DNA of 64,000 nucleotides from positions 294 to 64,293 of the forward strand of contig DASVUF010000006.1 of NCBI GenBank assembly GCA_036387195.1, read 5' to 3'. The stretch is from Pyrinomonadaceae bacterium. Its GTDB lineage: Bacteria; Acidobacteriota; Blastocatellia; Pyrinomonadales; Pyrinomonadaceae. The translations under genes and the position numbers were made by a program. Of this stretch, positions 12,301 through 64,000 are shown one piece after another; positions within the stretch are counted from its first letter, which is position 1; the number at the start of each line of letters is the position of its first letter. The notes under the pieces were generated by a model. The model ran no database searches and was not told the origin of the DNA. It worked only from the letters and a program-made list of their open reading frames with translations.

Positions 12301-13909
12301 GATAGGCGGCGACTCCATCCTCAGCATCCAAATTGCCAACCGCGCCCACGCGGCGGGCGTGCGTCTCACGCCGCGACAAATCTTCCAGCACCGCACCGTC
12401 GCGGAACTCGCCGCCGTGGTGGAGCCGGTGCGGGAGGCCGGCCCAGAGGCGGGCGGCGGCCGCGACGAGCAGGGCGTGGCGCGGGACGCGCCGCTGACGC
12501 CGATACAGCACTGGTTCTTCGAGCAGCGGCTCCCCGAGCCGCACCACTGGAACCAGTCGGTCATGCTCGAAGTCCGCCACCCGCTCGACCCCTCCGTCAT
12601 CGAGGAGGCGTGGCGGCGCCTGGTGGCGCAGCACGACGCTCTGCGCCTGCGCTTCGAGGCCGCGGACGGCGGCTGGCGTCAGCGCTGCCTGCCGCCGGGC
12701 GAGGGCGAGGGCGGGCTGCTGGCGCGCGCGTCTCTGGCCTCGACGCCGGAGGCCGAGCAGGAGGAGGCGCTGGCGTCGTTCGCCGCCTCGTTCCAGCGGA
12801 CGCTCGACCTCGGCGCCGGCCCGGTCGTGCGCGCCGCCTTCATCGAACTCGGCGGGCGGCGTCCTCCGCGCCTGCTGATAGCCGCGCACCACCTCTGCGT
12901 GGACATCGTCTCCTGGGGCGTCCTGCTCGACGGGCTCAACTCGGCCTGCGCGCAACTGACGCGCGGCGCCGAGGTGACGCTGCCGCCGAAGACGACGACG
13001 TTCGCGGCGTGGGCGGCGCGGCTCGAAGAGTACGCGAAGTCGGGGCGGCTGCGGGACGAGCTGAGCTACTGGGCGGCCGACGAGCGGCGCTGGGCCCCGC
13101 GCCTCCCGGTGGACTACCCCTCCGGCGCGAACACGGAGGAGTCTTCGCGGACGCTGTGGGCGTCGCTCGACGAGGAGCGGACGCGGGCGCTCTTGCAGGA
13201 TGTCCCGAAGGTCTACCGCACGATGATTAACGACGTGCTGCTGACGGCCCTCGTCCAGTCGTTCTCCGCGCGGACGCGCGCGCGCTCGCTGCTGGTGGAC
13301 CTGGAGAACCACGGGCGCGAAGACCTCTTCGACGACGTTGACCTGTCGCGCACCGTCGGCTGGTTCACGTGCATCTTCCCGCTGGTGCTCGACCTCGGCG
13401 AGGCGGCGGGCCTCGGGCAAGTCATCAAGTCTGTGAAGGAGCAAGTGCGGAGCGTCCCGGCCGGCGGCGTCGGCTACGGGCTGCTGCGCTACATGAGCGG
13501 CGACGCCGAGGCGGCGAGGCGGCTGCGCGAGCTGCCGCAGGCCGAACTCTGCTTCAACTACGTCGGGCGCGGCGGGAGGGGCGCGTCGGGCGACGAGCCG
13601 TTCGCCGCGCTCGAAGGCCCGACGGGGCCGACGAAGAGCCCGCGCGGCGCGCGGCGCTACCTCATCGAGATTAACGGCGGGGTCGCGGGCGGGCGGCTGC
13701 GCGTGGCGTGGACGTACAGCGAGAACGTGCACCGGCGCGAGACGGTCGAGGGGTTCGCGGCCGGCTTCATCCGGGCGCTGGAGGCCATCGTCGACCACTG
13801 CCTCTCGCCGGAGGCCGGCGGCTTCACGCCCTCGGATTTCGCGCTCGCCGGCGTCAGCCAGAGTGAACTCGACAGCCTCGTGGCTGAACTCGGCGGGTAC
13901 AAGGAGTAG
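9317..13909 (+). CDS. NRPS module: His-less C-like domain - A (Asn/Asp-like code) - PCP - epimerase
   Basis: The N-terminal ~430 aa have a C fold, but the HHxxxDG site reads 'LPALCADAAS' (9731-9766). A domain 'LAYVIYTSGSTGRPKG', 'NEYGPTE', 'YRTGDL', 'PLTPNGKVDR'. By-eye specificity residues are D-L-T-K-V-G-E-V-G-K. PCP 'FFEIGGDSILS' (Ser 12314-12316). E domain 'AAHHLCVDIVSW' (His 12887-12892). Confidence 0.93.
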   Translation: MQTTIAEGFGLSPQQRRLWSLMGRGGGAAYRVQCAVLVEGPLGAPALKAALEAVAARHEILRTSFHLLPGLNVPVQVIGEGGVEWGPEVELSDAPAPEQQAAVESMFATLKGAPPDPARGPLVRASLLRLGPGKKILLLDLPALCADAASMHILLGELASAVSAPADFAAADAPAQYADVSEYLSQLLEDGGPGLDYWQAFNLAELAARRPHFARRSAEAGDFQTRRISRGLAPGLAARVEGAARAHGSTPELFLLACWHALLWRVTGWGEVVVGVAFDGRRLEGLAGVPGALAKHLPLDARPEAGASFARLLTQVGERAAAHGQWQDFFDWGAAETKEAYLPLCYDYAELGARRRAGDAALSALSLSSHGERFDLKLSCVRRDGELSAEFYFDPRRCEARVVECLAEEFAALAENAAAAPGTPLAELSMLDAPTRRRLLGEFNRTAAPVPGAMYVHRMIEEQARLKPGAEAVVCGGERLSYAELNERANRLAHHLAARGVGPDVLVGLCFERSASMLVAMLGVLKAGGAYLPLDPSYPRERLAFMVDDARLELLVTEGRLAERLEPCAADLVLLDEARAALAGQGDENPAVALRDENLAYVIYTSGSTGRPKGVMVTHGGLLNYVSWSRRAYRVAEGRGAAVSSSFAFDLTVTALFPPLAEGRGLVLLGEDATGELLADALRGRPDFSLIKITPAHLKLLSLLLAPQELEGATRALVVGGEALHAESLAPWREHAPATRIINEYGPTETVVGCCVYEVGDGAERHGPVPIGRPIANTQVYVLDGRMEPAPPLAAGEIYIGGAGVARGYLDRPALTAERFVPDPFSSEGGARLYRTGDLGRHGADGAIEFLGRRDEQVKVKGYRIEPGEIEAALCEAPEVREAVVVAREESGEKQLVGYVTLRAGAASGAAELRRRLRRKLPEHMIPAAFVILGRLPLTPNGKVDRGALPEPDMTRPEHDAGYAAPRTPTEQLLAELWARALGQERVGVHDNFFEIGGDSILSIQIANRAHAAGVRLTPRQIFQHRTVAELAAVVEPVREAGPEAGGGRDEQGVARDAPLTPIQHWFFEQRLPEPHHWNQSVMLEVRHPLDPSVIEEAWRRLVAQHDALRLRFEAADGGWRQRCLPPGEGEGGLLARASLASTPEAEQEEALASFAASFQRTLDLGAGPVVRAAFIELGGRRPPRLLIAAHHLCVDIVSWGVLLDGLNSACAQLTRGAEVTLPPKTTTFAAWAARLEEYAKSGRLRDELSYWAADERRWAPRLPVDYPSGANTEESSRTLWASLDEERTRALLQDVPKVYRTMINDVLLTALVQSFSARTRARSLLVDLENHGREDLFDDVDLSRTVGWFTCIFPLVLDLGEAAGLGQVIKSVKEQVRSVPAGGVGYGLLRYMSGDAEAARRLRELPQAELCFNYVGRGGRGASGDEPFAALEGPTGPTKSPRGARRYLIEINGGVAGGRLRVAWTYSENVHRRETVEGFAAGFIRALEAIVDHCLSPEAGGFTPSDFALAGVSQSELDSLVAELGGYKE

Positions 13910-13911
13910 GT

Positions 13912-21102
<7,191 letters not shown>

Positions 21103-25103: not shown

Positions 25104-27806
25104 ATGGCAGAGCAAGCGAATGACGTGACGGCGGGGGCGGCGACTGCGGCGGCGGGCGGCCCGCCGCCGCAGCATCTCCTGCCGCTGGAGGAAGGGCAGT
25201 GGGCAATCTGGCGGCTGACGTGCCTGCGCGGCGCGGGCTTCCCCGCCTCGCTGGTGCTCAGGCTGGCGGCCCCCGAGTGCGCCGCCGCCGCGGACCGGGT
25301 GGCCGAGGCCGCGGCCTCGGCCGAGCGCGCCCGGCTCCGCGCCTCGGAGTCCATCAAACTCGCGCTGACGGACATCCGCCGCCGCGGCGAGTGGACGACG
25401 AGCCCCGCCCTCGACCCGCTCCTGCGCGCCCTCAAGCGGGTGAAGGCGGGGGAACCGCCGCGGCCGACGGGCGAGGCGGCGGCCGACGCCGCGGTCGAGG
25501 AGTGGCGCGCCGCGGCCGCCCGGGTGGTCGCGGCGCGGGCCGACTACGCACGCTCGTACGCGGAGGCGGCCGCCCTCACCTCGCAGTCGCTCCGCGAGGT
25601 AATTGCCGACGAATCGTTCCAGGAGGCCGTCATCTGGCAGAACCGGCACGCCTTTAACCGCATCAAGCAATCGCTCTGGAAGGCCCCGGCCGGCGCGCGC
25701 AACAGCAGCCGGCGCCAGAACGAGGAGTTAATCACCAACTACCTCCAGCGTTACTGCGTCAAGAACGACACCATCGGCTTCTTCGGCCCCGTCGGCTGGG
25801 CGCGCTTCGTCCCGTCCGGCGAGGCGCTCGTCGTGCGCCCCGGCGAGCGCCTCCTGGCCTCGCGCAGCGTCTACTTCGAGGGGTGGTGTGTTGACGCGCT
25901 GGCCGAGGCTTTGAATGGCGACGGCGCCCTGCGGCCGTGGCTCGCGCCGCGCCGGCTACCCTTCATCGGCCTCGACGGCGGCGTCATGACCCTGCCCGGC
26001 GGCGCCTCGCTCCCCCTGCCTGCGAAGGACGCGGCCGTCCTCGCCGCCTGCGACGGGCTGCGGACGGCCAGAGAGTTGGCCGCCGGGTTGTTGGGCGCCG
26101 GCGTGGGCGGGCTCGGGACGGAGGAGGAGGTCTACCGGCTGCTGGACGCCTACTGCAAGCGCGGCGTCCTCGTGTGGAAGCTCGAAGTCCCCGTCCAGCA
26201 GAGGGCCGAACGGACGCTGCGCGGGCTGATCGAGAAGGTCGGCGACGAGCGCCTGCGCCGCAGGGGCCTCGGCCTGCTGGACGAACTTGAAGCGGCCCGC
26301 GGCCACGTCTCCTCGGCCGCCGGCGACCCTGAACGGCTGAACCGCGAGCTGAACCACCTGGAAGAGACTTTCAGCCGCCTGACCGGCGCGGCCGCGACGA
26401 GGGCGGCGGGCCAGACCTACGCGGCGCGCACGCTCGCCTACGAAGACTGCCGGCGCGACATCGAGGTTCAAATCGGGCCCGAGGTCTTGGCGGCGCTCGC
26501 GCCGCCGCTCTCCCTGCTGCTGCAAAGCGCGCGCTGGATTTCGCACGAGCTGGCCGGGATGTACCGCGCCGCCTTCCGCGCGGTTTACGCCGAGCTGGCC
26601 GCAAAGCGGCGCTCCCCGGTCGTCCCCGCCGCCGACTTCTGGGTCAAGTGCGACCCCCTGCTGTTCAAGGAGGGCGTGCGAATCGCCGACCGCGTGACGC
26701 CGCTCTTCCAGCAACGCTGGGCGGAGGTGCTGGCGCTCGAACCCGGCGCCCGCCGCGCCGACTTCACCTGCGAGCAACTGCGCCCGCGCGTCGAGGCCGC
26801 CTTCGCCGCGCCCGCCCCCGGCTGGAGCCACGCGCGTTACCACAGCCCCGACGTGATGATAGCCGCCCCGAGCGCCGAGGCCGTCCGGCGCGGCGACTTC
26901 CACCTCGTCATCGGCGAACTGCACCTCGGCGTGAACTCCCTGAACGGCTCGCTGTTCCTCGGGCAGCACCCGCGCCCCGAGGAGATTTACGAGGCCATCA
27001 CGGCGGACTTCGCCGGGCCGCGCATCGTGCCCGTGCCGCCGAAGAGCTGGCCCACGCTGACGGCCCGCACCGTCTTCGAGTTCATCTCGCCCCTCAACTA
27101 CAGGCTCATGATTTCGCCCGACGCGTGCGGCGTCCCGCCCTCCCGCGCGCTGCCCATCAGCGACCTGGTGGTCGAAAACCAGGGCGGCCAACTCGTCTTG
27201 AGGACGCGCGACGGGCGGCTCCGCTACGAGGTCGTGGAGGGCTTCGGCGAGTTCCTGTCGAGCCTCATCATCAACTTCTTCCAACTGTCGCCGCCGCTGC
27301 GCCACACGCCGCGCGTCACCATTGACCGGGTGACCGTCAGCCGCGAGTCGTGGCGCTTCCCGCCTGCCGAACTCGCCTTCGCCAATGAGGCGGACGAGGC
27401 GGCGCGCTTCGCGGCCGCGCGCCGGTGGCAGCGCGGCCACGACCTGCCGCGCTTCCTGTTCGCCAAGACGCCCGTCGAGCGCAAGCCCTTCTACGTTGAC
27501 ATGGAGAGCCCGACCCTCGTCAACATCTTCGCCCGGTTCGTGCGGCGCTCGGCGGAGGCGGGCGGGGCGGACGCCCTCATCACCCTTTCGGAGATGCTCC
27601 CGGCGCAGGAAGACCTCTGGCTGCCGGACGCCGAGGGGCGCCGTTACACCAGCGAGCTGCGCATGGTGACCCTCGACCTCTCCACGGCCCCGGGCGAACA
27701 ACAGGCCGCGGCCGCGTCGCAAAAAACAACTCGTCCGGATGGCCGCCCGGCGCCGCTCGCGGCGCCGCAACCCGCGAAAGTTTCTGACGACTTTCGGCGA
27801 GCTTAA
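25104..27806 (+). CDS. Lantibiotic-dehydratase (LanB) N-terminal/glutamylation-domain family protein lacking the elimination domain (small-LanB / PEARL-like)
   Basis: 'WAIWRLTCLRGAGFP', 'FQEAVIWQNRHAF', 'NYLQRYCVKNDTIGFFGPVGWARF', and C-terminal 'PRVTIDRVTVSRESWRFP...LPRFLFAKTPVERKPFYVDMESPTLV'. The ORF ends about 60 aa after that segment. GGGGGAGGA RBS lies upstream of ATG 25104. Confidence 0.6.
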   Translation: MAEQANDVTAGAATAAAGGPPPQHLLPLEEGQWAIWRLTCLRGAGFPASLVLRLAAPECAAAADRVAEAAASAERARLRASESIKLALTDIRRRGEWTTSPALDPLLRALKRVKAGEPPRPTGEAAADAAVEEWRAAAARVVAARADYARSYAEAAALTSQSLREVIADESFQEAVIWQNRHAFNRIKQSLWKAPAGARNSSRRQNEELITNYLQRYCVKNDTIGFFGPVGWARFVPSGEALVVRPGERLLASRSVYFEGWCVDALAEALNGDGALRPWLAPRRLPFIGLDGGVMTLPGGASLPLPAKDAAVLAACDGLRTARELAAGLLGAGVGGLGTEEEVYRLLDAYCKRGVLVWKLEVPVQQRAERTLRGLIEKVGDERLRRRGLGLLDELEAARGHVSSAAGDPERLNRELNHLEETFSRLTGAAATRAAGQTYAARTLAYEDCRRDIEVQIGPEVLAALAPPLSLLLQSARWISHELAGMYRAAFRAVYAELAAKRRSPVVPAADFWVKCDPLLFKEGVRIADRVTPLFQQRWAEVLALEPGARRADFTCEQLRPRVEAAFAAPAPGWSHARYHSPDVMIAAPSAEAVRRGDFHLVIGELHLGVNSLNGSLFLGQHPRPEEIYEAITADFAGPRIVPVPPKSWPTLTARTVFEFISPLNYRLMISPDACGVPPSRALPISDLVVENQGGQLVLRTRDGRLRYEVVEGFGEFLSSLIINFFQLSPPLRHTPRVTIDRVTVSRESWRFPPAELAFANEADEAARFAAARRWQRGHDLPRFLFAKTPVERKPFYVDMESPTLVNIFARFVRRSAEAGGADALITLSEMLPAQEDLWLPDAEGRRYTSELRMVTLDLSTAPGEQQAAAASQKTTRPDGRPAPLAAPQPAKVSDDFRRA

Positions 27807-54689: not shown

Positions 54690-55270
54690 AGCGGCCGCGT
54701 GGAAGGAGCGGAGGCATTGGGCGGCCCGCCATCTCCTCCGTATTGCCCTGTGGTCTTGCCGATAACATGGTCGAGATGCCCGACGCGCCCGAGTTTACAA
54801 TCTCGCGGCAAGACTTTTTCTTTAACTGAAGCAGCGAACGCCTCCGGGTATGAGGCGCGCCCGTCCGCGCCGACGGTGAACGGTAGCCGCCGGTGGTCGG
54901 CCCTCATTAGCTTCTTAAAGAAACGTTTCGCCGCGCAAACATCCCGCTTCGCGCCGAGCATGAATTCGATGGCGTCCCCGACGGAGCCGACTGCTCTGTA
55001 AAGATATTCCCACTCTTTACCGACCTCCACGCACATCTCGTCCAGCCTGGAAGAGGCGCCACTCATCTTTAAATGAGGGGGCGCCCGCTCGTTGATTTCC
55101 GGGGCGCATTTCTGGGCCCATCTCCACACAGTCGCATGCCCCGGGGAGAGAACCGCGCCCGCGCATCATCTCCCCCATGTCGCTGTAAGAGAAGCCGGTA
55201 GCGGCGGCGCCGCCTGACGCATAAAAGGATGGTGGCAGGCTCGAAGTGGCGCCACTTAAAGGGGATTTAT
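54690..55270 (-). pseudogene. IS6-family (IS26-like) DDE transposase pseudogene with frameshifts, a stop codon and loss of the C-terminus
   Basis: Reading the minus strand across three frames gives 'INP(+1 nt)FKWRHFEPATILLCVRRRRRY', 'GFSYSDMGEMMRGRG', then '(stop)..SPGHATVWRWAQKCAPEINER...SSRLDEMCVEVGKEWEYLYRAVGSVGDAIEFMLGAKRDVCAAKRFFKKLM...FTVGADGRASYPEAF...RVGHLDHVIG'. This tracks IS26 Tnp 'MNPFKGRHFQRDIILWAVRWYCKY-GISYRELQEMLAERG-VDHSTIYRWVQRYAP...WHMDETYVKVNGRWAYLYRAVD...INTDKAPAY' (recalled from memory). The start ATG is now ATA (55268-55270). The third catalytic acidic residue is lost ('IEQDH' -> 'VIGK'). The 3' end near 54690 is approximate. Confidence 0.8.
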
Positions 55271-55355
55271 GCTGCTTTACGAGTATTATTCCCGGATAGG
55301 GATGACCGGGCTGCGGGGAGGATTATAGCCCGGGAGTGATTGCTGCAACACGGCC
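54690..55355 (-). mobile_element. Decayed IS6-family insertion sequence retaining one terminal inverted repeat
   Basis: The transposase remnant is described above. 85 nt outside its start, 55341-55355 'tgctgcaacacggcc' has the reverse complement GGCCGTGTTGCAGCA, which matches GGCACTGTTGCAAA (the IS26 IR as I recall it) at 10 of 14 positions. No convincing second IR was found. Confidence 0.65.
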
Positions 55356-55389
55356 GTTCCGGCGCCGACAAACCGCCTACGGGACGCGG

Positions 55390-55468
55390 GCCGAGGGGCG
55401 CGCCCGGCGAGCCGCCCCGCCTACGTCGAAGGGCGCGAGCCGTCGCGGGGCGGCTCGCGCCCCTCGGC
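55390..55468. repeat. Long imperfect inverted repeat (13 + 11 bp arms with a 7-nt bulge) in a non-coding spacer
   Basis: The reverse complement of 55390-55420 'gccgaggggcgcgcccggcgagccgccccgc' is 'gcggggcggctcg|ccgggcg|cgcccctcggc'. 55445-55468 reads 'gcggggcggctcgcgcccctcggc'. Confidence 0.6.
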
Positions 55469-55770
55469 TCCGACCAGTTCGTGCTCGCACAGACGCGCGG
55501 CGCAAGCTACTATACGCGGGCGCGCGCCCCGGCCGGAGCGTCTCGGAAGGTTCAGCCGCCCCGCTCTACGACCCGATGCGCGCCGGCTCGCCGGCGCGCG
55601 GGGGAGCTGAAGCCCTCGCGCGTCAACTGGAGCCGCCGGGGCGGCCCTGATACGCTTTGCCGCCACGTCGGGCGGGTGGAAACGTTTTCGCCGAATTCCT
55701 CATTCATTTATTAAGGATGAATCCGAGAGGGTGACCGCGCCCGCTCTCTTACTCACCGTGGTTGAAAATT

Positions 55771-55791
55771 CAGGCCCCGGCGGGGGGCCTG
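55771..55791 (-). terminator. Intrinsic-terminator-like hairpin oriented for the minus strand
   Basis: An 8-bp GC stem, 'caggcccc' (55771-55778) paired with 'ggggcctg' (55784-55791), with a 5-nt loop. On the minus strand it is followed by 'AAUUUUCAA'. There is no U-tract on the plus strand. Confidence 0.4.
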
Positions 55792-55978
55792 ATATCGGTC
55801 GAAGGCGCTTCTCGCCTGATAACGTATGGCAGGCGCCCGGCGCAGGATGACCGAGGCGGACATCCCGGCGACGCCCTGGCGTGTGGTGGCCTCCGTCGCC
55901 CTGCTCGACTCCGCTACTCTACAGCCCGGCGTATACAAGCGGCGCGGGAGTCGCCCGCTTCGCCGAAGGAGATAAGTG

Positions 55979-58900
55979 ATGCCTAAAGATTTATCTTCCA
56001 GCGTTGAATTCCTGCGCCCGCCCGTCGGCCCGTCCTCGCGCGACGGCATCACCGGCGAGGTCGCGGAAAGCCTGGCCTTCGACGACCCGCGGCGGGTGAG
56101 CGCGCTAATACGCGCGTCGGACATGCGCCGCGCCGGCTCGCTGTCGGACAAAGGGTTCAGCGCCGCCGTCGCCGCCGAGTCGCTGACCTCGCTTGAGATC
56201 ATCATCGGCGAAAACAACATCCTGCCGGCCTGGTTTCTGGACGTGGCGCCGACCCGCTCGTCCGCGGTCTGTAAGATCGAAGCGGGCGGGACGAACTACA
56301 AAGGGGGCAGGGGGCGATGGGTCGGCACGGGCTTTCTTATCTCGGACAGCGTCCTCCTCACGAACCACCACGTCATCAACTCCCCGGACACGGCGCGCAA
56401 CGCCGAGTGCGTTTTTAACTACCAGCGCGACCCCGAGGGGAAAGACCTGCCCGTGAAGCGCTTCCGCCTGAACCCCGGCCGGCTGTTCCTGACGAGCCCG
56501 ACGCCGGGCGGCCTGGACTTCACCTTCGTCTGGGTGGAGGGCGCGCCCGGCAAGGAGTTCGGCATCGTGCCCTTCAACCGGGACTTCTTCGTCATTCAGG
56601 AGGGGGACGTCGCGAACATCATCCAGCACCCCGGGGGCGACTACAAGGGCGTGACCTTGCAGGAGAACAAGGTCATGCGGGTGGACGAGGCCCTTGTGCA
56701 TTACGTCTCCGACACGAAGCCGGGCAGCTCCGGGAGCTGCGTCTTCAACAACAGTTGGATGCCGTTCGCCCTGCACCACGCCAGCGCCGACAACGCCAGC
56801 CCGGGCGCGGCGAACCCCTCCAGGTACGTCAACGAAGGCATCAGGTTCTCGGCCATCGTCGCCTACCTGGAGAACCTCATGCGGGATGAGCCCGCGCGCA
56901 GGCAGGCCGTCGAAGAGATTCTCTCGCACGTCAACGGGACCGACTCGGTCCTGGGTCACTGGGGCGCCCTGGGACGCGCCGCCCCCGACTCGCGCCCCGC
57001 CGTCGAAACCGTGGTGAACATCTACAGAGGCGAGGCCGAGGACGTTGACGTGGGCTTCTGGAACGTCGGGTGGTTCACCCCGCGTTACAGCGAGAAGCTC
57101 CAGCGCGTGGCCGAGGTGTTCGTCAAGATGAACCTCGACATCTGGGTCTTCGAGGAGACGACGGCCGAGGCGGCGGGCGCGCTCGCCGCCTACCTGCGGG
57201 ACGCCTACCACCTCGACTTCGTGTGCGAATTCTCCGAGCCGGACCCGCAGCCCGGCGCGCAGACGACCGCGGTGATGTGGAATCGGAAGACGGTCGAGGG
57301 GCGGAAGGCCGAATGGCCGGCCGAGATAGACGAGTGGTTCAGCGCGCGCGCAGAGGACTTCGACGACCTCCGCCGGGAGGGGGCCGAGGGCCGTATGTTC
57401 GAACGCCGCCCCGCGCTCTTCCGCTTCTCGAACAAGGGCGGCGCCGCGTTCGACTTCTTCCTGGCGCCGCTCCACCTCAAGGCGCAGGACGGAGGAGGGA
57501 AGCGGCGCGTGGCGGCGGCCATCCTCGCCGCGGCCGTCGGCAGGATGGTCGAGCAGCAGGGGGCCGACCGCGACTGGGTTATCGGCGGCGACTTTGACGC
57601 GCCGCTGGCGAACGAGGACTTCGGCAAGCTGGTCGCCGGCGGCATGACGGCGCTGAGCGCCGGGGGCGGGCAGGGCGGCGCGTTCTCCTACGTCAAGGGG
57701 CCGAACTCGCCCGTCGAACACGTCTTCCTCTCGCCGAACCTGTCCGAGACTTACGGGGGCGAAGACTTCTTCATCGTGGCCCGGGACAAAGAGATTCCCG
57801 ACTACCTGACGGCGCTCGGCGGCCACAGCCCGGTGCTGGTCAGACTCAGCATCCGGGGCGACCAGCCTAAAAACGAAAGGGGACATATGACGGACGGGAA
57901 AAGACTGTCTGACTCGCTGCGCGACAAGTTATCCGGCCTCGACCTGGGGGTCGGCGTCGGCTCGGCGCGCCCCGCGCCGGACGCGGACGGTGACGGTGAC
58001 GGTGACGGTGACTCCGCCGCGCTGCGCATCCCGCTGACCGTGACCGTGAGCGGCGACGAGGTGAGCCTCTCGGCGCGCATCAGCGTGCGGGAGTTGAAGG
58101 GGCTGCTGGCGGGCGCTTCGCCCGGCGTGGTCGAGGAGGCCGTGAGCATAGACCCCGACTACGGCAGCCGGCAGGGGTACGACCCGGACTTCCTCGGCGC
58201 GGGCAAGCGGCGCGTCCCGCTGCCGCAGTTGTCGGCCGCCTTGAAGGCCAGGGCCGCGGTCAACAGCAAGGCCGCCGGCGGCGACAGGCACGTGCTGCCT
58301 TACCACCACTACAGCGTGGTGATGAACAGGGAGCGGCGGCTGGCCTTCTTCACCGCCGTCAACATTGACGGGAGCGTCTTCTACAACATCAAGCGCGAGC
58401 CGGACAAGTGGTACTTCGACCCGCGCATCGGGAAGGACGAGCAGACCGGCAACGAGGTCTACGCCAACAACCCGCTCGACCGCGGCCACCTCGTGCGCCG
58501 CCTCGACCCGGCCTGGGGCGAGTCGCGCGAGCTGGCGAAGGTGGCCAACGACGACACCTTCCACTTCACCAACTGCTCGCCGCAGCATCACGACTTCAAC
58601 GCCGGCAAGTCGCTCTGGGCCGGCCTCGAAGACTACATCCTGAAGAACGCCGACGCGCTGGACTTTAAAGTCTCGGTCTTCACCGGCCCGGTCTTCAGCA
58701 AAGACGACGACGCATACCGCGGCGTGCAATTGCCGCGGCAGTTCTGGAAGGTCGTCGTCATGGTCAAGGGCGACGGGAAACTGTCCGCGACCGGCTACCT
58801 CCTGAGCCAGGAGACGCTGCTCCAGGGCATCGGCGAGGAGGCGTTCGTGCCCGAGGACAAGGAGGCCTTCTCCTACGGGGCTTACAAGACGTTCCAGACG

Positions 58901-59053
58901 CCCGTGCGGAGGATCGAGAAGCTGACCGGGCTGAGCTTCGGCCAGCTACGTAATTTCGACCCGAAGAACCACCTGGAAAGCGACCTGGAGGGGCTCGAAG
59001 CCCTCGACCTCCGACAGGCGACGCTGGACGATTACAAGGACATCAAGTTCTGA
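55979..59053 (+). CDS. Three-enzyme fusion: trypsin-fold serine protease - EEP (DNase I-like endo/exonuclease/phosphatase) - DNA/RNA non-specific endonuclease (beta-beta-alpha-Me, Endonuclease_NS)
   Basis: Protease (~56189-56875): 'GTGFLISDSVLLTNHHVI', 'LDFTFVWV', 'NIIQHPGG', 'GSSGSCVF'. EEP (~57038-57856): 'DVGFWNVGWF', 'LDIWVFEET', 'FLAPLHLKA', 'VIGGDFDAPL', 'GGHSPVLVRL'. EndoNS (~58283-58945): 'YHHYSVVMNRERRLAFFTAVNIDG', 'DRGHLVRR' (58478-58501), 'FTNCSPQHHDFNAGKSLWAGLEDYI'. AAGGAG lies at 55966-55971, 7 nt before ATG 55979; the ORF track starts at GTG 55976. Confidence 0.85.
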   Translation: MPKDLSSSVEFLRPPVGPSSRDGITGEVAESLAFDDPRRVSALIRASDMRRAGSLSDKGFSAAVAAESLTSLEIIIGENNILPAWFLDVAPTRSSAVCKIEAGGTNYKGGRGRWVGTGFLISDSVLLTNHHVINSPDTARNAECVFNYQRDPEGKDLPVKRFRLNPGRLFLTSPTPGGLDFTFVWVEGAPGKEFGIVPFNRDFFVIQEGDVANIIQHPGGDYKGVTLQENKVMRVDEALVHYVSDTKPGSSGSCVFNNSWMPFALHHASADNASPGAANPSRYVNEGIRFSAIVAYLENLMRDEPARRQAVEEILSHVNGTDSVLGHWGALGRAAPDSRPAVETVVNIYRGEAEDVDVGFWNVGWFTPRYSEKLQRVAEVFVKMNLDIWVFEETTAEAAGALAAYLRDAYHLDFVCEFSEPDPQPGAQTTAVMWNRKTVEGRKAEWPAEIDEWFSARAEDFDDLRREGAEGRMFERRPALFRFSNKGGAAFDFFLAPLHLKAQDGGGKRRVAAAILAAAVGRMVEQQGADRDWVIGGDFDAPLANEDFGKLVAGGMTALSAGGGQGGAFSYVKGPNSPVEHVFLSPNLSETYGGEDFFIVARDKEIPDYLTALGGHSPVLVRLSIRGDQPKNERGHMTDGKRLSDSLRDKLSGLDLGVGVGSARPAPDADGDGDGDGDSAALRIPLTVTVSGDEVSLSARISVRELKGLLAGASPGVVEEAVSIDPDYGSRQGYDPDFLGAGKRRVPLPQLSAALKARAAVNSKAAGGDRHVLPYHHYSVVMNRERRLAFFTAVNIDGSVFYNIKREPDKWYFDPRIGKDEQTGNEVYANNPLDRGHLVRRLDPAWGESRELAKVANDDTFHFTNCSPQHHDFNAGKSLWAGLEDYILKNADALDFKVSVFTGPVFSKDDDAYRGVQLPRQFWKVVVMVKGDGKLSATGYLLSQETLLQGIGEEAFVPEDKEAFSYGAYKTFQTPVRRIEKLTGLSFGQLRNFDPKNHLESDLEGLEALDLRQATLDDYKDIKF
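57980..58012 (+). repeat. In-frame GGT-GAC microsatellite encoding an Asp-Gly repeat linker (DADGDGDGDGD)
   Basis: 'gacgcggacggtgacggtgacggtgacggtgac' between the EEP and EndoNS domains. Confidence 0.9.
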
Positions 59054-59063
59054 CGCGCGGGCG

Positions 59064-59087
59064 GCCTGCGGCGGCGCCGCCGCAGGC
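59064..59087 (+). terminator. Perfect 24-nt GC palindrome directly after the fusion gene's stop (hairpin, no U-tract)
   Basis: 'gcctgcggcggc|gccgccgcaggc'. A second hairpin lies at 59131-59163 ('gccgcacggcc' ... 'ggccgtgcggc', 11-nt loop). Confidence 0.3.
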
Positions 59088-59197
59088 TAAAGCCTCCGGA
59101 GGCGCGCGTCCCTGTCCGGCGCCGGTGGACGCCGCACGGCCGCCGCTACGCGGGCCGTGCGGCCGACGGCCGAGCCGGGTGAAAGGAGTTGACATCT

Positions 59198-59713
59198 ATG
59201 GCTGGCGAGGGTTTTGAGGCGGGCTGGACCGGCTCCAAGGCAAAAGCCGTGCTCTCCTTCGCGCAAGGGGTCGTGCCGCTGGTCATCGCCGTGGCGGTTC
59301 TGCTCATCTTCTGGGGTCTGGTCAAATCTATGATGGGTTTGACGAAGGCTCCGGAGTTAGAATGGAATCGCGCCGCGTACCTGTTCTCGGGGGTGGAGGC
59401 GATAGCCTACGCCGCCGCCGGTTTCCTTTTCGGGAGGGAGGTGCACCGCCAGCGCGCCGAGCAGGCCGAGCAGCGCGCCGGCAGCGAGCAGCAGCGCGCC
59501 TCCGAAGCCGAAAAGAAGGCCACCGAAGAGACGACCAAGGGCCAGACCCTCAGGCGGGTCATCGAGGCCAAGAAGTCCACACGGCTCGAACGCGCGCCCG
59601 ACATGGAGGGGCTTGAGAGTTTTCAGGCCGGCGGCGGCCCGGCGCAGGCGGCGGGGCAGTCGGACATTGACGAGCTGTCGAGAGTCTCCAGCGAGCTGTT
59701 CCCTTACAACTGA
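59198..59713 (+). CDS. Small two-TM membrane protein with a charged coiled-coil C-terminal tail (unknown family)
   Basis: TM1 'VLSFAQGVVPLVIAVAVLLIFWGLV', TM2 'AAYLFSGVEAIAYAAAGFLFG', then 'REVHRQRAEQAEQRAGSEQQRASEAEKKATEE'. AAGGAG lies at 59183-59188, 9 nt before ATG 59198; the ORF-track TTG 59189 has no spacing to it. Confidence 0.7.
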   Translation: MAGEGFEAGWTGSKAKAVLSFAQGVVPLVIAVAVLLIFWGLVKSMMGLTKAPELEWNRAAYLFSGVEAIAYAAAGFLFGREVHRQRAEQAEQRAGSEQQRASEAEKKATEETTKGQTLRRVIEAKKSTRLERAPDMEGLESFQAGGGPAQAAGQSDIDELSRVSSELFPYN

Positions 59714-59880
59714 CGCGGGGACCGCACAGCGCGCGCCGGCCGAAATTCATAACGACCTTAAGACTCTTTGAAGGGGTAGTGTGATGGCGCCGGCCGGGTC
59801 GCGCCGGCGTAAGGTGTATGAACTGCCCGACGCGGTGGCCGCCGAAGAGCCCCGCGCCTTCGTGTAGAGGGGCTGCGAAT

Positions 59881-60861
59881 ATGGCGTCGAGAGAAACCCT
59901 GACGGCTTTAAATTATGTCCTCGCCGGCCTGTACCCCTTCCCCGCCGATTCCTACAGAATCGTTGAAGAGGCCGGCATACCGCCGCAGGTCGTCGCTTTC
60001 AGGCCCAAGGCCATAGACACCTGGTACGAAATCCTCCGCGCCGCCAACAACATGGGGCGCGTGCTCGACGTGGTGCGGGCGGCGCTCAACGAACACCCCG
60101 AGAACCCCTTGCTCATACAGGCCGGGAAGGGCGAAATAAAGCAGACGCCGGCCCCCGTCGTGGGCACAGACCTGCCCTGGAAGGGCGACCTCTCCGCGGA
60201 CGCCCTGGAGAGGATCATGGGGAGTCAGAGCACGCTCCTGCCCGTCAGCTTTCTTGAGGTCGGCGTGCTGCAATCCCGGACCGTGGCCAAGGTTCAGTTC
60301 GCCGGCGGCGAGAGCGGGTCGGGCTTTCTTCTGAAAGACAACCTCTTCGTCACCAACCACCACGTCATCCCCGACCGCGAGCGAGCCGCGGTCGCGGAAC
60401 TCCTGTTCAACTACCAGAAGTCGGCGGCCGGCCTCGACCTCCAGCCGAGCAGCCGCAGGCTCGACCCCGAAAGCGGCTTCGCCACCTCCGACGAGCACGA
60501 CTGGACGCTCGTCCGCGTGGACGGCGACGCCAACGCCGAGTGGGGCGCCATCGAAATCAGGGAGGTTGACGTGAGTGTGGCCGAGAGGGTGAACATCATC
60601 CAGCACCCGGGCGGCGGGCCGAAACAGATAGCCCTCTATCACAACGTCGTCGCCTACGTCGGCGAAAACCGCATCCAGTACCTGACCGACACCCTGCCGG
60701 GCTCTTCCGGCTCGCCCGTCTTCGACAGCAAGTGGCAGGTCGTCGCCCTCCACCGCAGCGGCGGCTGGATACTCGAACCGGGGACGAAGAACCACGTCTT
60801 CCGGAACGAGGGGATTAACATCAACCGCGTGGTGCAGGGCCTGAGAGCAGCCGGGTTGTGA
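59881..60861 (+). CDS. Adaptor (effector-associated/death-like helical domain) fused to a trypsin-fold serine protease
   Basis: The N-terminal ~80 aa are helical and alignable without gaps to the N-terminus of the next gene. Protease 'GSGFLLKDNLFVTNHHVI', 'HDWTLVRV', 'NIIQHPGG', 'LPGSSGSPVF', 'VVALHRSGG'. I chose ATG 59881; the ORF track's upstream 21 codons (from 59818) are Pro/Arg-rich. Confidence 0.8.
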   Translation: MASRETLTALNYVLAGLYPFPADSYRIVEEAGIPPQVVAFRPKAIDTWYEILRAANNMGRVLDVVRAALNEHPENPLLIQAGKGEIKQTPAPVVGTDLPWKGDLSADALERIMGSQSTLLPVSFLEVGVLQSRTVAKVQFAGGESGSGFLLKDNLFVTNHHVIPDRERAAVAELLFNYQKSAAGLDLQPSSRRLDPESGFATSDEHDWTLVRVDGDANAEWGAIEIREVDVSVAERVNIIQHPGGGPKQIALYHNVVAYVGENRIQYLTDTLPGSSGSPVFDSKWQVVALHRSGGWILEPGTKNHVFRNEGININRVVQGLRAAGL

Positions 60862-60866
60862 GCGGT

Positions 60867-63368
60867 ATGGGCTGGACGCCGGAGCTAACCAGAATCAGGG
60901 ACATCCTCGCCAGACTCTACCCTCACAAGGAAGAGCTGCCCAGGCTCGTCGAGGACGCCGGCATGGCGCTGGAGTTGGTCGAACTCGACGGCACGGCGAG
61001 CGCCGCCTGGCACGACATCATAAAAAAGGCGGTCGCGGGCGGCCGGCTCGACGCCCTGGTCGGCGAGTGCGTCAAGTCCGCCGCCGACGCCGAGCTGCGG
61101 GGGGCCTATCAGGACTACCTCGCCGCCGCGCGCCGCCCCGGAGCCGCGCCCGCCGCCGCCCTCCACGCCCCGCCGCCCCTCCAGCCCCCCACGCTCATCG
61201 GCCGCGACGCCGAGGTGCAGACCTTAAAGGAACTCCTGCGCGAGCCCGAGACGCGCCTGCTGACGCTGACCGGGCCCAGCGGCGTGGGCAAGACGGCGCT
61301 GGCCAAGCGCCTGGCGGTAGACCTCGCCAAAGAGTTCGCGGACGGCGTGACCTTCGTCGAGCTGGGCGCGCTCCGCAACCACGAGGCCGCGCCGGGCGAG
61401 GTCGCCGGCGTGATGTGGGACTACAAGCAGACCGTAGACATCCCCCTAATAAGTTTCCTGCAGGACAAGCGGCGGCTGATAGTCCTTGACGGCTTCGAGG
61501 CCGTCATCAAGGCCACGCCGTTCGTTAAGACCCTGCTCGGGAATTGCCCCGGCGTAAAAATCATCATCACCAGCCAGCAGCCCCTCGCCTGTGAGGACGA
61601 AGAACTCTCCCTGCTGGAGAAAAGATACATCGTCACGCCGCTCTCGTACCCCGGCGCGGGCGGCCAGTCGCCCGAGGTCACGGCGGCCGAGTCGGCGGCC
61701 GTCAAGCTCTTCGTCGCCCACGCGGAGGCGATAAAAGGCAAAGGCAAACTCGACCTCGGCCCCGCGAACATGGAGGCCATCGTGGCCATCTGCAGCGAGG
61801 TCAACGGGCTCCCGCTCTGCATACAGATACTGGCCAGCTTCATCAGCATCTTTAACGACCCGCCGGCCTTGCTGGAGTTTCTGAGGCGGGAGGGCTTCGC
61901 GCAGCTCGACGAGGAGCAGCACCTCTCGAAGGCCATAGACATCAGGCACGCCAGCCTCAAGCCGGACGACCAAATCCTCTTCAGGCGGCTGGCGGTGTTC
62001 GCCGACTGGTGTTCGTTGCAGGCCATCAGGGAAGTGTGCGCGTCGGCCGGCGGAAAGACCGTCCCGGTCGTGACCACCCTGAGACGGCTGGTTGACGGGA
62101 GCTTTGTGCAGTCGGAAGGCGGGCGGTACAGGATGCTTCAGGTCATCCGCGAGAGCGCGCGCGAGCACCTGAAGTCGAGCGGCGAGGCCGACGACCTCCG
62201 GATGAGATTCGTGGAGCACTACCTGGCAGTCGCCAGGGAGGCGGAGCCGAAACTTAAGACGCCTGAACGCGCCGCGCAGCTACAGGAACTCCAGCGGGAC
62301 TACGGAAACTTCCGGGCCGTGTTCGACTGGAGCGCCACCCCGAAGGGGAGCCCGGAGGCGGGGCTGTCGCTGGCCGGCTCGCTCTTCTGGTACTGGAACT
62401 TCATGGGCTACCTCCGCGAGGGGCAGCGGCGCGTGCAGAAGGCCGTGCGCCTGGCCGCCCCGCAAGCGCCCTCTGCGCCGCTGGCGAAGGCGCTGTACTG
62501 TGACGGCGGCCTGACGTTCCTCCTCGGCGACTACAGGGAGGCGCAGAGGCAGCTCGACAAGAGCGCCGAGGCGTGGAACGCCGTCGGCGACGAGGCCGGC
62601 CTCGCCTACGCGCTGATAGTGCTCGGCATGGTCAGGAAGGAGATAGGCGAAGACCTCGACTCGGCGCGCGAGCACGAGGAGAAGAGCGTACGACTGCTGG
62701 CGGGGCGCGACGAGTGGGGGCACGCGCTCGCGCTCAACGACCTCGGGAACGTGCTGGCGGCGCAGGGGCTTCACGGCGAGGCGCGGCGAAGTTACGAAGA
62801 GAGCAAAGCGATGTGGGGGCGGCTGAAGGACACCTGGGGACTGTCGCTGACCCTGAGCAACCTCAGTTCGCTGGAGTGCAAGGAGCAGAACTACGGCGTG
62901 GCCTACGACCTGATGCGGGACGCGCTCAAACTCCAGCTCGAGGCGGGCGATAAGTGGGGCCGGGCCTGGTCGCTCAAGGGAATCGGCGAGGCGAAACTGG
63001 GCATGAAGGACTACGCGGCCGCGGCCTCGCACTTCTACGAGAGTTACCGCCTGCACTCCGACCTGGGCCGAAAGCAGTTGATAGCGGAGTGCTTGGAGGG
63101 ACTGGCGAAGGTCGCCGCGGGGCTCGGTCAGGAGTCGCGGGCCGCGTCCCTGCACGGGGCGGCGGAAAGCCTCCGCGAGCAGTCGGGGAGCAGCATGTCC
63201 TCCGCAAAGGATAGGGAGTATGATGGCCTCGTGAATCGCCTGCGCCTCGACATGGGCATGAAGGCTTTCGAGAGGGCCCGGGCCGAAGGGCGCGCGTGGA
63301 CTGAGGAGCGGTTGCAGCAGCAGGTTCAGTCCTACGCCCTCGACCTTCAAGGCGGCGCAGGCCCCTGA
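60867..63368 (+). CDS. STAND NTPase: adaptor domain - NB-ARC-type P-loop NTPase - TPR/helical-repeat sensor
   Basis: 'LIGRDAEVQTLKELL', Walker A 'LTGPSGVGKTALAKRLA' (61272-61295), Walker B 'RLIVLDGFE' (61476-61499), 'IIITSQQPL', 'GLPLCIQILASFI'. The C-terminal ~370 aa are TPR-like repeats ('WYWNFMGYLREGQ', 'GDEAGLAYALIVLGMV', 'WGHALALNDLGNVL', 'TWGLSLTLSNLSSL', 'WGRAWSLKGIGEA'). With ATG 60867, 'LYP' falls at residues 17-19, exactly as in the preceding gene. GTG 60858 (GTGA overlap with that gene's stop) is the alternative. Confidence 0.85.
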   Translation: MGWTPELTRIRDILARLYPHKEELPRLVEDAGMALELVELDGTASAAWHDIIKKAVAGGRLDALVGECVKSAADAELRGAYQDYLAAARRPGAAPAAALHAPPPLQPPTLIGRDAEVQTLKELLREPETRLLTLTGPSGVGKTALAKRLAVDLAKEFADGVTFVELGALRNHEAAPGEVAGVMWDYKQTVDIPLISFLQDKRRLIVLDGFEAVIKATPFVKTLLGNCPGVKIIITSQQPLACEDEELSLLEKRYIVTPLSYPGAGGQSPEVTAAESAAVKLFVAHAEAIKGKGKLDLGPANMEAIVAICSEVNGLPLCIQILASFISIFNDPPALLEFLRREGFAQLDEEQHLSKAIDIRHASLKPDDQILFRRLAVFADWCSLQAIREVCASAGGKTVPVVTTLRRLVDGSFVQSEGGRYRMLQVIRESAREHLKSSGEADDLRMRFVEHYLAVAREAEPKLKTPERAAQLQELQRDYGNFRAVFDWSATPKGSPEAGLSLAGSLFWYWNFMGYLREGQRRVQKAVRLAAPQAPSAPLAKALYCDGGLTFLLGDYREAQRQLDKSAEAWNAVGDEAGLAYALIVLGMVRKEIGEDLDSAREHEEKSVRLLAGRDEWGHALALNDLGNVLAAQGLHGEARRSYEESKAMWGRLKDTWGLSLTLSNLSSLECKEQNYGVAYDLMRDALKLQLEAGDKWGRAWSLKGIGEAKLGMKDYAAAASHFYESYRLHSDLGRKQLIAECLEGLAKVAAGLGQESRAASLHGAAESLREQSGSSMSSAKDREYDGLVNRLRLDMGMKAFERARAEGRAWTEERLQQQVQSYALDLQGGAGP

Positions 63369-63442: not shown

Positions 63443-64000
63443 ATGGAACATGAAGGGAGTTCGTCGAAGGATGAACCCGTCACGCTGGCGTCGGCCGCCG
63501 GCTCCCCCTTCCGCTTTACCGTCGGCGTCACGCCGGCCCGGGGCGCGGGCCCCCGCGCCCTCTCGTTCGAGGTCACGGGGCCGGAGCCCTCGGGCGGCTC
63601 TTTAAAGACGCGCCGCTACCACCTGCCCGACGCGGGGCACAACTCCTATCTGGACTTGTTCCTGAGCCTAGCGCGCGACTTCGGAGCGCGCGTCCCGCGT
63701 AACCGACGCCCGTCAGTCGAACCCTCCTTCAAGGCGAAGTACCGCGCGCTCCTGACCGAGAACCTGGCCCCGGGCGTCGTCTACGGCTACGGCGACCCGG
63801 GGGTGCTTCGCCTGGAGGCGGGGGCCGGCGGCGAGGAGGGCGTCTGGTATTACATCGTCGTCACCTCGAACGACGCCCCCGACTCGTTCCCCATCATCCG
63901 CTCGCGCGACCTCGCGAGTTGGGAGTTCGCGGGCTTCGTCTTCCCGAAGGGCCGGAAGCCGGCGTGGGCGGCGGACGGCGAACACGTCAGCGACTTCTGG
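63443..64000 (+). CDS. GH43-like glycoside hydrolase (five-bladed beta-propeller family), 3'-truncated by the window end
   Basis: Hand translation from ATG 63443 runs open to base 64000 (186 codons): '...GVVYGYGDPGVLRLEAG...GVWYYIVVTSNDAPDSFPIIRSRDLASWEFAGFVFP...DFW', the GH43-style 'GDP.v....g.yY...TS....' start. It is absent from the ORF track because it has no stop. Confidence 0.6.
   Translation, partial: MEHEGSSSKDEPVTLASAAGSPFRFTVGVTPARGAGPRALSFEVTGPEPSGGSLKTRRYHLPDAGHNSYLDLFLSLARDFGARVPRNRRPSVEPSFKAKYRALLTENLAPGVVYGYGDPGVLRLEAGAGGEEGVWYYIVVTSNDAPDSFPIIRSRDLASWEFAGFVFPKGRKPAWAADGEHVSDFW

Follow-up and report, generated by a model that had tools for sequence, protein, structure and literature searches.

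Does a compact run of genes that sets two proteases beside nuclease-like domains, a small membrane protein and a nucleotide-dependent switch constitute a conflict system and, if so, of what kind? The question is raised by positions 55979-63368 of a 64,000-nucleotide stretch of DNA (hereafter, the window) from a Pyrinomonadaceae bacterium (GenBank assembly GCA_036387195.1, contig DASVUF010000006.1, positions 294 to 64,293), where four co-directional open reading frames (ORFs), g1 to g4, occupy the + strand. Our answer, read from sequence and held with only slightly better than even confidence, is that the four genes form an EAD1-coupled STAND-protease conflict system and belong to the NucA-trypsin/CARD-NLR-like kind. 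Here, an ATP-driven sensor probably recruits a protease via matching adaptor domains and so turns on a nuclease and, perhaps, also a membrane protein. The observations behind this answer are the domains themselves, their intact catalytic residues, the paired adaptors, the 5-nt coupling of g3 to g4, the conserved g2-g3 and g3-g4 neighbourhoods, and a link, at the level of the family, between g1-type genes and EAD1 and STAND genes.

An earlier sequence-only reading of this DNA had proposed the four co-directional genes, and the ORFs were confirmed. Start codons were set by orthologues and database entries. The last two genes had been described as abutting or overlapping; of the two g4 starts suggested, ATG 60867 stands, and it leaves a gap of 5 nt and no overlap. 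An identical 5-nt spacing is found in an orthologous locus, L084. The start given for g3, 59818, gives way to ATG 59881, as the orthologue, 84% identical, starts at what is Met22 in the longer ORF. Each motif quoted in that reading is present once, where it had been placed (TNHHV, GSSGS, FWNVGWF, VFEET, GGDFD, HSPVLV, DRGH and NCSPQ in g1; TNHHV and GSSGS in g3; Walker A and B in g4). The genes and their parts are listed here; g1 residues are numbered on the 1024-aa protein, and their conservation refers to alignment A1, which holds 20 three-domain g1 homologues.

55979-59053, + strand: g1, 1024 aa, start ATG 55979; Trypsin_2, endonuclease/exonuclease/phosphatase (EEP) domain, acidic linker and NucA-type nuclease; leaderless
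56324-56758, + strand: g1 trypsin-like peptidase domain (Trypsin_2); triad His131, Asp180, Ser251, invariant in A1
57056-57841, + strand: g1 EEP domain (Exo_endo_phos); catalytic motifs altered at four nearly invariant positions
57851-58183, + strand: g1 variable acidic linker, the least conserved, gap-rich part of A1; DGDGDGDGD at 57986-58012; candidate proteolytic processing region
58271-58942, + strand: g1 NucA/Endonuclease_NS (beta-beta-alpha-metal) domain; DRGH at 834-837, N874, E884
59198-59713, + strand: g2, 171 aa, start ATG 59198; two hydrophobic segments; the protein is P0241
59881-60861, + strand: g3, 326 aa, start ATG 59881; EAD1 and Trypsin_2
60867-63368, + strand: g4, 833 aa, start ATG 60867; EAD1, STAND and TPR; the protein is P0121
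60879-61109, + strand: g4 EAD1
61197-62186, + strand: g4 STAND NOD; Walker A and B intact
62187-63350, + strand: g4 TPR solenoid

Domains and adaptors of the four proteins

The domain calls of the sequence-only reading (protease, EEP, Endonuclease_NS, NB-ARC and TPR) were all recovered by Pfam profile search. The product of g1, identical to P0001 (labelled by NCBI as a Pyrinomonadaceae metagenome-assembled genome (MAG) protein), matches Trypsin_2 at 1.6e-16, Exo_endo_phos at 2.3e-6 and Endonuclease_NS at 1.7e-53. Its nuclease domain finds its best PDB matches in Anabaena NucA (1zm8, 2o3b) and EndoG, and the NucA residues His837 (of DRGH), Asn874 and Glu884 are invariant in A1. When the EEP domain was compared with the PDB, the single sequence gave no match and the profile gave only weak EEP matches, and neither comparison assigned a subfamily or a class of substrate (DNA, lipid or phosphoinositide). 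A signal peptide is absent from the protein. Elsewhere, a Trypsin_2-EEP core carries alternative domains, namely Endonuclease_1, Lipase_3, GDSL, Peptidase_S8 and Amidase_3 (P0036, P0042, P0057, P0060, P0067, P0072, P0113 and others); this polymorphic-effector-like pattern finds no mention in the literature passages searched.

The product of g3 joins an EAD1 domain (9.8e-9; 59887-60120) to a Trypsin_2 domain (3e-23; 60316-60750) with the triad H161/D207/S276. On comparison with the PDB, this protease resembles V8-type and Spl-type glutamyl endopeptidases. EAD1 supplies an identity for the "adaptor" that had been noted, unnamed, on both g3 and g4, and it is the domain used in the conflict systems of Kaur et al. 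(below). In g4, residues 8-84 match PF19955 (EAD1) with an E-value of 9.5e-9 (36 bits vs. a cut-off of 24.2), and g3 and g4 hold the only EAD1 matches in the window. The two domains are 23-24% identical to each other, whereas each is 60-79% identical to its own L084 orthologue. Kaur et al. (2020) reported a tendency, not a strict criterion, for an EAD to be closer to the EAD of the adjacent gene than to copies elsewhere; it is not borne out at g3-g4.

Beyond EAD1, the Pfam matches of g4 are weak ones to AAA_16, NACHT and NB-ARC and a strong one to TPR_12 (1.4e-18). Walker A (GPSGVGKT) lies at 61272-61295 and Walker B (LIVLDGFE) at 61476-61499. An AlphaFold2 (AF2) model of the protein, with a mean predicted local distance difference test (pLDDT) score of 90.3, consists of a helical bundle (residues 5-88), a disordered linker, an NBD-HD-WHD unit and a TPR solenoid (441-828). 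Foldseek ranks an archaeal STAND-TPR structure first (6mfv, 1.6e-11), ahead of plant NLRs, CED-4 and MalT domain III. The profile of the g4 family matches the AfsR NOD at about 5e-33; the match to nSTAND1 has an E-value of 0.0043, with 17 bits vs. a cut-off of 27.1. Past five close EAD1-bearing orthologues, the relatives of g4 form a very large "predicted ATPase" family whose N-termini are cyclase, kinase, HTH or TIR domains. Given the model, the AfsR profile match and this family, "adaptor-NB-ARC-TPR" is a fair name for the protein. There is no trypsin domain at its N-terminus, where EAD1 stands alone. Among the g4 orthologues (alignment A5, with P0122-P0127), EAD1 is the fastest-evolving part (32-60% identity), compared with 56-79% for the TPR region and 58-72% for the NOD. 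Judged by these identities, a TPR region as conserved as the NOD is unlike the pattern of a rapidly diversifying sensor.

The small protein g2 had been called a protein with two transmembrane (TM) segments, and hydropathy analysis agrees, with a strong segment at about 22-47 and a moderate one at about 62-82 (numbered on the 174-aa ORF; subtracting 3 gives the numbering of the 171-aa protein). Its family (alignment A2) conserves Trp59, Glu70 and an invariant GFLFGREV that ends the second hydrophobic segment on the cytosolic side; a variable charged tail and then a conserved C-terminal "LFP" follow. A profile search gathered 1313 representative clusters (50% identity), 1036 of them at E <=1e-10; almost all members are 140-200 aa long and free-standing. 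Searches of Pfam and the PDB returned no family and no match for g2, and relatives were absent from the phage collection and the IMG/VR viral contigs; the single match among plasmids, from Bradyrhizobium, was uninformative. Several candidate identities were rejected. Trypco1/Trypco2 and SLATT had no match in 32 family members even at E up to 1, Pfam holins gave only marginal Phage_holin_3_6 matches in 2 of the 32, and a 171-aa protein encoded just after the closest g1 homologue (locus L001) proved unrelated. Distant members of the family adjoin leaderless Trypsin-S8, M19-like, Amidase_2 and astacin genes, and one has no obvious partner. It is conceivable, but in our estimation quite unlikely, that g2 represents a large, unrecognised 2-TM family of protease-licensed, holin-like membrane effectors, in which the partner trypsin-like protease would cut off the charged cytosolic tail; removal might possibly occur at the invariant juxtamembrane G-R-E-V site.

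How might these parts work together? In favour of a functioning circuit, the trypsin triads of g1 and g3, the NucA residues of g1 and the Walker motifs of g4 are all intact. We propose that the TPR solenoid of g4 binds a trigger, upon which the NTPase, as STAND biology would lead one to expect, exchanges nucleotide and oligomerises. Oligomerisation would cluster the N-terminal EAD1 domains, and the cluster would recruit g3 homotypically through its own EAD1, activating the protease by proximity. Active g3 would then process pro-effectors, of which g1 and g2 are the likeliest. In g1, seen as a leaderless, zymogen-like fusion, cleavage may release or activate the NucA and EEP domains, possibly via g1's own protease; g2 is a 2-TM pro-effector candidate. 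The expected result would be regulated cell death or an arrest of growth, brought about by degradation of DNA, by damage to the membrane or by both.

A mosaic locus

Is the block a fixed four-gene unit? It is a mosaic. Its stable core is g3-g4, g2 travels with EAD1-trypsin genes, and the contents of the effector slots differ: this locus has g1 and has lost a gene carried by relatives, which we call X. Orthologues of g4 that are 55-73% identical to it occur on four contigs (L084, L085, L086 and the contig of P0127), and upstream of each, across the 5-nt gap also seen between g3 and g4, lies an EAD1-Trypsin_2 gene of 326-328 aa. The g2 protein is 77% identical to the product of the upstream gene in L084, and g2 orthologues occur either immediately upstream of EAD1-Trypsin_2 genes or one gene away from them, the EAD1-Trypsin_2 genes preceding three different cores. 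These cores are a STAND-TPR protein in L084; EAD1-iSTAND, MoxR and vWA, with an adjoining integrase, in L087; and EAD1-TIR, another EAD1 protein and a giant TPR protein in L088. The nucleotide homology between the window and L087 stops about 100 nt inside g4; a recombination breakpoint within the EAD1 of g4 was considered and set aside, since protein identity over the domain is only 45%. L084 also carries, upstream on the - strand (587-2355), a weakly matching Peptidase_C14 caspase-like protein and an astacin/matrixin-like metallopeptidase with the motif HEFGHxxGxxHE, both absent from the window.

Gene X lies between g2 and the EAD1-trypsin gene in L084 (3703-4434) and L087 (8582-9745). Its products, of 243 or 387 aa, are 74% identical to each other and contain no Pfam domain; their C-terminus resembles EAD7 (0.0027) and EAD1 (0.0013) weakly. 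The absence of X from the window is evident because the blastn alignment blocks break exactly at 59775-59811. X looks like an uncharacterised EAD-tagged effector that the locus of the window has lost. This junction and the other features that surround or interrupt the block are as follows.

54700-55129, - strand: IS6-family transposase fragment, truncated (DDE_Tnp_IS240 1.3e-17, profile positions 3-87 of 139); context, outside the system
59064-59087, no strand: 24-nt perfect GC-rich palindrome directly 3' of the g1 stop, lacking a T-tract; no terminator-like site called
59775-59811, no strand: gene X junction; relatives carry X between g2 and g3, and the window has a clean 36-bp junction
63443-64000, + strand: GH43-like gene, of which only the start lies in the window; neighbour downstream of g4

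The genes that resemble g1 tell a story at two levels. Neighbouring EAD1 proteins were called with an EAD1 hidden Markov model built for this analysis and checked against Pfam. Genes that combine the trypsin, EEP and NucA domains adjoin EAD1 proteins in 11 of the 13 loci with usable flanks (the window, L002-L005, L010, L096, L097, L099, L100 and L149), and they are typically partnered by an EAD1-Trypsin_2 protein, a roughly 450-aa EAD1 protein and an nSTAND1 NTPase. Of the two-domain relatives, no Tryp-NucA locus and a single Tryp-EEP locus (L019) had an EAD1 neighbour. This difference ties the effector architecture to EAD1-trypsin/STAND genes at the level of the family. The association is real at that level; for the window's own g1 clade it is not established. 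The partner STANDs in L002 and L004 match nSTAND1 at 1e-90 to 1e-98, unlike g4. In L004 (7410-10454; a Frigoriglobus MAG), the nSTAND1 NTPase beside the g1 homologue bears a C-terminal Endonuclease_NS domain (8.7e-23) and is thus a STAND-NucA fusion.

What of the surroundings? The decayed IS6 element described in the sequence-only reading is a real fragment, and the stretch between it and g1 that lacks a convincing gene is longer than the roughly 620 bp suggested, at about 850 bp (55130-55978). The GH43 gene had been taken to be unrelated, which is not obviously so: it follows the g4 orthologue by 40-75 nt in all four related contigs, with 66-81% identity to the window (e.g., L084 8013-9494 and L086 4396-5859). 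This neighbourhood could reflect either vertical synteny or co-transcription with the system. In the GH43-like protein, which has no obvious signal peptide, an N-terminal extension of about 115-135 aa precedes the part that matches Pfam GH43. The 60-nt lines of 55-57% GC that had been cited as a sign of foreign DNA are real minima, but they do not make an island. Across the block such lines have a median GC of 0.67 (range 0.53-0.85), the block as a whole stands at 0.670 vs. 0.703 for the window, and GC at third codon positions in g1-g4 is 0.83-0.91. On these native-like values, we rejected the notion of a compositionally foreign island.

No further recognisable defence gene lies elsewhere in the 64-kb window. 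The remainder encodes nonribosomal peptide synthetases (NRPS), a protein resembling lanthipeptide dehydratases, a histidine kinase, a TonB receptor and the like; a multi-module NRPS (C-A-T, with a terminal thioesterase) and a Lant_dehydr_N gene, at 9317-21102 and 25104-27806, form a secondary-metabolite region unrelated to the locus. Promoter, terminator and Rfam scans produced nothing above chance, and an NCBIfam scan nothing at cut-off. The g1-g2 spacer also contains an imperfect 26-nt inverted repeat that lacks a T-tract (spacer region 59116-59178).

Relation to catalogued and tested systems

Does the locus have precedents? The sequence-only reading recognised no named, characterised system of comparable make-up, which was too strong a statement: close analogues have been named, and some have been tested. 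They are compared here through the passages of the papers that describe them. In a computational study, Kaur, Burroughs, Iyer and Aravind (eLife 2020, PMC7159879) described EADs as homotypic coupling adaptors, the "EAD principle". Their EAD-coupled NTPase systems resemble our locus in that EAD1 is found both on the core NTPase, g4, and on an adjacent enzyme, g3. The nearest of them, the NucA-peptidase system, comprises NucA and trypsin, which may be fused, one trypsin paralogue that bears EAD1, additional EAD1 proteins and, in some operons, a STAND; its activation was predicted to proceed through a proteolytic cascade. Likewise, NucA is fused to trypsin in g1, the second trypsin paralogue, g3, has EAD1, and another EAD1 protein is present. 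The differences lie in the remaining parts. The published STAND has bDLD2 and trypsin at its N-terminus, and the systems are mostly alphaproteobacterial, whereas here we find an EAD1-NB-ARC/AfsR-type-TPR protein in an Acidobacteriota-labelled MAG. In g1, the protease and NucA are separated by an inserted EEP domain, and the term "EEP" is absent from the main text of Kaur et al. Furthermore, the passages and supplements searched of that paper contain no 2-TM partner of the g2 type. The same study described ternary iSTAND/MoxR-vWA systems. L087 contains such a core together with the g2-X-EAD1-trypsin cassette (77-83% identity), but the window has neither MoxR nor vWA, its core being a single active STAND. 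Kaur et al. also linked these conflict systems to a multicellular habit.

Experimental work comes closer to function. Wein et al. (PMC10312443) reported that a Lysobacter gasdermin system and a Pedobacter phospholipase-endonuclease system, each with two trypsin proteases and a STAND ATPase, defend against phage, and that the protease, the ATPase and the CARD-like N-terminal domain are all required. These CARD-NLR systems, together with Azospirillum-type three-gene operons, share with our locus a protease with an N-terminal helical adaptor of about 100 aa and a STAND ATPase with C-terminal repeats; as in g1, their effector is often fused to a trypsin-like protease. They differ in that EAD1 matches none of the crystallised bacterial CARDs in sequence and resembles them only weakly in fold, and in that no gasdermin is present here. 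The g4 ATPase is also not of the nSTAND1/CARD-NLR clade (with Pfam nSTAND1, the family beside the other three-domain g1 homologues, as the proxy for that clade), and its adaptor is N-terminal, whereas that of the Lysobacter ATPase is C-terminal or absent.

In Caulobacter crescentus, LypABC consists of a CARD-trypsin protein, an NTD-AAA+-TPR protein (NTD, N-terminal domain) and a trypsin-linker-NucA protein, and it drives the lysis that releases gene transfer agents (Nat Microbiol 2026, PMC13236601). Lysis requires both protease serines and the Walker A and B motifs, and the CARD of LypA binds LypB's N-terminal domain; lysis does not need the nuclease residues, and its effector is unknown. LypC resembles g1, LypA resembles g3 and LypB resembles g4, and the operon lies outside defence islands. 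The systems differ in that LypA has an extra degenerate ATPase domain, LypC lacks EEP, and the paper's relevant passages report no g2-like gene. Tuck et al. (Science 2025, PMC12799240) found, in Avs type 1 (AVAST) and Hachiman, gated pro-nucleases that trypsin-like proteases unmask. There, too, a sensor-controlled trypsin-like protease licenses a DNA-degrading enzyme by cleavage, but the nuclease is of the MBL type and separately encoded, and the protease is fused to the sensor and not recruited by an adaptor. Avs/AVAST proteins, moreover, combine effector, STAND and sensor in one polypeptide, whereas the effectors here are separate proteins; PADLOC found no Avs or Hachiman match. Taken with the systems of Kaur and Wein, LypABC and the Tuck systems, the circuit logic outlined in the sequence-only reading, in which a STAND switch and a protease license a nuclease or membrane effector, is well precedented; the NucA-trypsin, CARD-NLR and pro-nuclease examples match it, and by analogy with them it may apply to this locus.

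Alternatives and significance

Several findings weigh against a four-gene conflict system. PADLOC, a check proposed in the sequence-only reading, recognised no system in g1-g4 and gave only domain-level matches (the protease part of RT-Protease_XI and a weak TPR). That reading also looked to co-occurrence of the four genes across genomes, and they do not co-occur: g1 is missing from all four contigs that bear g3-g4 orthologues, and the closest homologues of g1 (L001, 4831-7895, and L094, 4843-7913; 70-72% protein identity) lack g2-g4 and have no EAD1 or STAND neighbours. The nucleotide homology of these two loci to the window is exactly the size of the coding sequence, and what they share with each other is likewise CDS-sized; the flanks resemble neither the window nor one another, and those of L094 are apparently housekeeping genes (NADH dehydrogenase, release-factor type), judged from ORF sequences only. 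This pattern suggests that the g1 clade moves as a single gene, without recognisable mobile-element ends. As its closest homologues stand alone and the homology is limited to the coding sequence, g1 is possibly autonomous and its adjacency to g2-g4 a matter of chance. The 24-nt palindrome separates g1 from g2, and a Pfam scan of the g1 N-terminus (residues 1-115) and linker found no EAD and no other domain.

The putative effector and the adaptor fold call for caution as well. The EEP domain of g1 retains N362, E393, H499, D538 and H616, but it has Asp540 in place of Asn, Glu580 in place of Asp, Gly614-Gly615 in place of Ser-Asp and Ser617 in place of Arg, and it is the sole such copy among the 20 homologues. 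Expressed as motifs (57584-57841), GGDFN has become GGDFD, IDH has become VEH and SDHR has become GGHS. Since nearly invariant catalytic positions are substituted, the activity of this domain is possibly weakened, and it may be decaying in the lineage of g1. Nor need the NucA domain be the killing activity, because the nuclease residues of LypABC are dispensable. An AF2 model of EAD1 (g3 residues 1-101, built from a 7-row alignment; pLDDT 80.8) has five helices and a short helical turn. All its Foldseek matches have E >3; the best template-modelling (TM) scores are those of the CARD 9frr (0.45/0.48) and the Azospirillum death-like domain 8ss1 (0.42/0.43), and the bacterial CARD entries 8srz and 9cs7 are also in the top ten. 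When the EAD1 sequence profile was compared with the PDB, no CARD was found, only spurious RecA matches. Thus, a Death-like fold for EAD1 is weakly supported by modelling.

Could the block be two independent units that happen to be adjacent, a stand-alone mobile g1 and a separate g2-g3-g4 EAD1/STAND system that lost effector X? We regard this as a live possibility, if a doubtful one. It would explain why the closest relatives of g1 stand alone, one of them among apparent housekeeping genes, with only the coding sequence in common with the window; why orthologous g3-g4 loci lack g1 and carry X between g2 and g3; and why a palindrome and a 144-nt gap follow a g1 that has no EAD. It sits less well with the distant three-domain homologues, which lie beside EAD1-trypsin/STAND genes in 11 of 13 loci while two-domain relatives almost never do, and with the co-direction and short gaps of g1-g4. 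The missing adaptor is also not decisive, as CARD-NLR-like operons too have a trypsin-fused effector without a CARD of its own, LypC being an example. A different proposal accepts the same machinery but assigns it a role other than antiviral defence, namely that of a domesticated hub for regulated lysis or programmed death (in particle or public-goods release, development or kin conflict), as in LypABC. The g3-g4-GH43 synteny, kept across 55-73% identity, suggests vertical inheritance; the native-like codon composition, the absence of neighbouring defence genes and a TPR region no more variable than the NOD point the same way, as do LypABC, which is likewise located outside defence islands, and the link of Kaur et al. 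to a multicellular habit. We nonetheless consider this role unlikely, given that related g2-g3 cassettes adjoin an integrase and ternary conflict systems (L087) or EAD1-TIR (L088) and L084 carries caspase-like and metallopeptidase genes, all of which is typical of conflict loci, and that the homologous Lysobacter and Pedobacter systems defend against phage (PMC10312443).

Two further readings appear weaker. The locus might be a holin-like export cluster, in which a g2 lesion would release the leaderless g1 and g3 products outside the cell for nutrition or antagonism. The holin-like layout of g2 (two TM segments and a charged tail) and the leaderless Trypsin-S8, M19-like, Amidase_2 and astacin genes beside its distant homologues would agree with this, but EAD1 adaptors and a STAND NTPase are parts of intracellular signalling. 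With no g2 relatives in phage records or viral contigs, no secretion-system genes present and holin matches that are marginal and confined to 2 of 32 members, we judge export to be very improbable. Finally, g4 could be an ordinary AfsR/MalT-type regulator and the proteases housekeeping enzymes, with no conflict or suicide function. Its NOD and TPR regions are indeed closest to the large COG3903/AfsR-type family, in which N-termini are cyclase, kinase or HTH domains. Yet an output domain, whether DNA-binding or enzymatic, is missing from g4; its N-terminal EAD1 is paired with that of the adjacent protease, its neighbours are nuclease and TM effector candidates, and in other loci the same cassette is connected to iSTAND/MoxR/vWA and TIR systems. 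We find this last reading hardly credible.

The reading that we prefer, an EAD1-coupled STAND-protease conflict system, extends and does not overturn what is known, because its kind had been catalogued before and experiments exist for close analogues. What the locus adds to the catalogued kind is an EAD1-bearing STAND of the AfsR type (not nSTAND1), the EEP insert and the g2 partner family. If the speculative role of g2 were true, this protein would be a non-gasdermin executioner for EAD1-trypsin and CARD-NLR-like systems, and the "unknown downstream lytic effector" that has been postulated for LypABC could be of this sort; a widespread, uncharacterised 2-TM family would thus be a candidate executioner, should the overall model be right. 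That model, if correct, would mean that an adaptor-mediated, inflammasome-like circuit of sensor NTPase, recruited protease and cleaved executioner does not depend on a single clade of STANDs. One and the same head, g2-EAD1-trypsin, would plug into an AfsR-type STAND-TPR, an iSTAND/MoxR/vWA ternary core or a TIR/giant-TPR set, with the effector genes g1 and X swapped at defined junctions. These loci would then provide a compact natural series for how Death-like/EAD adaptors specify wiring.

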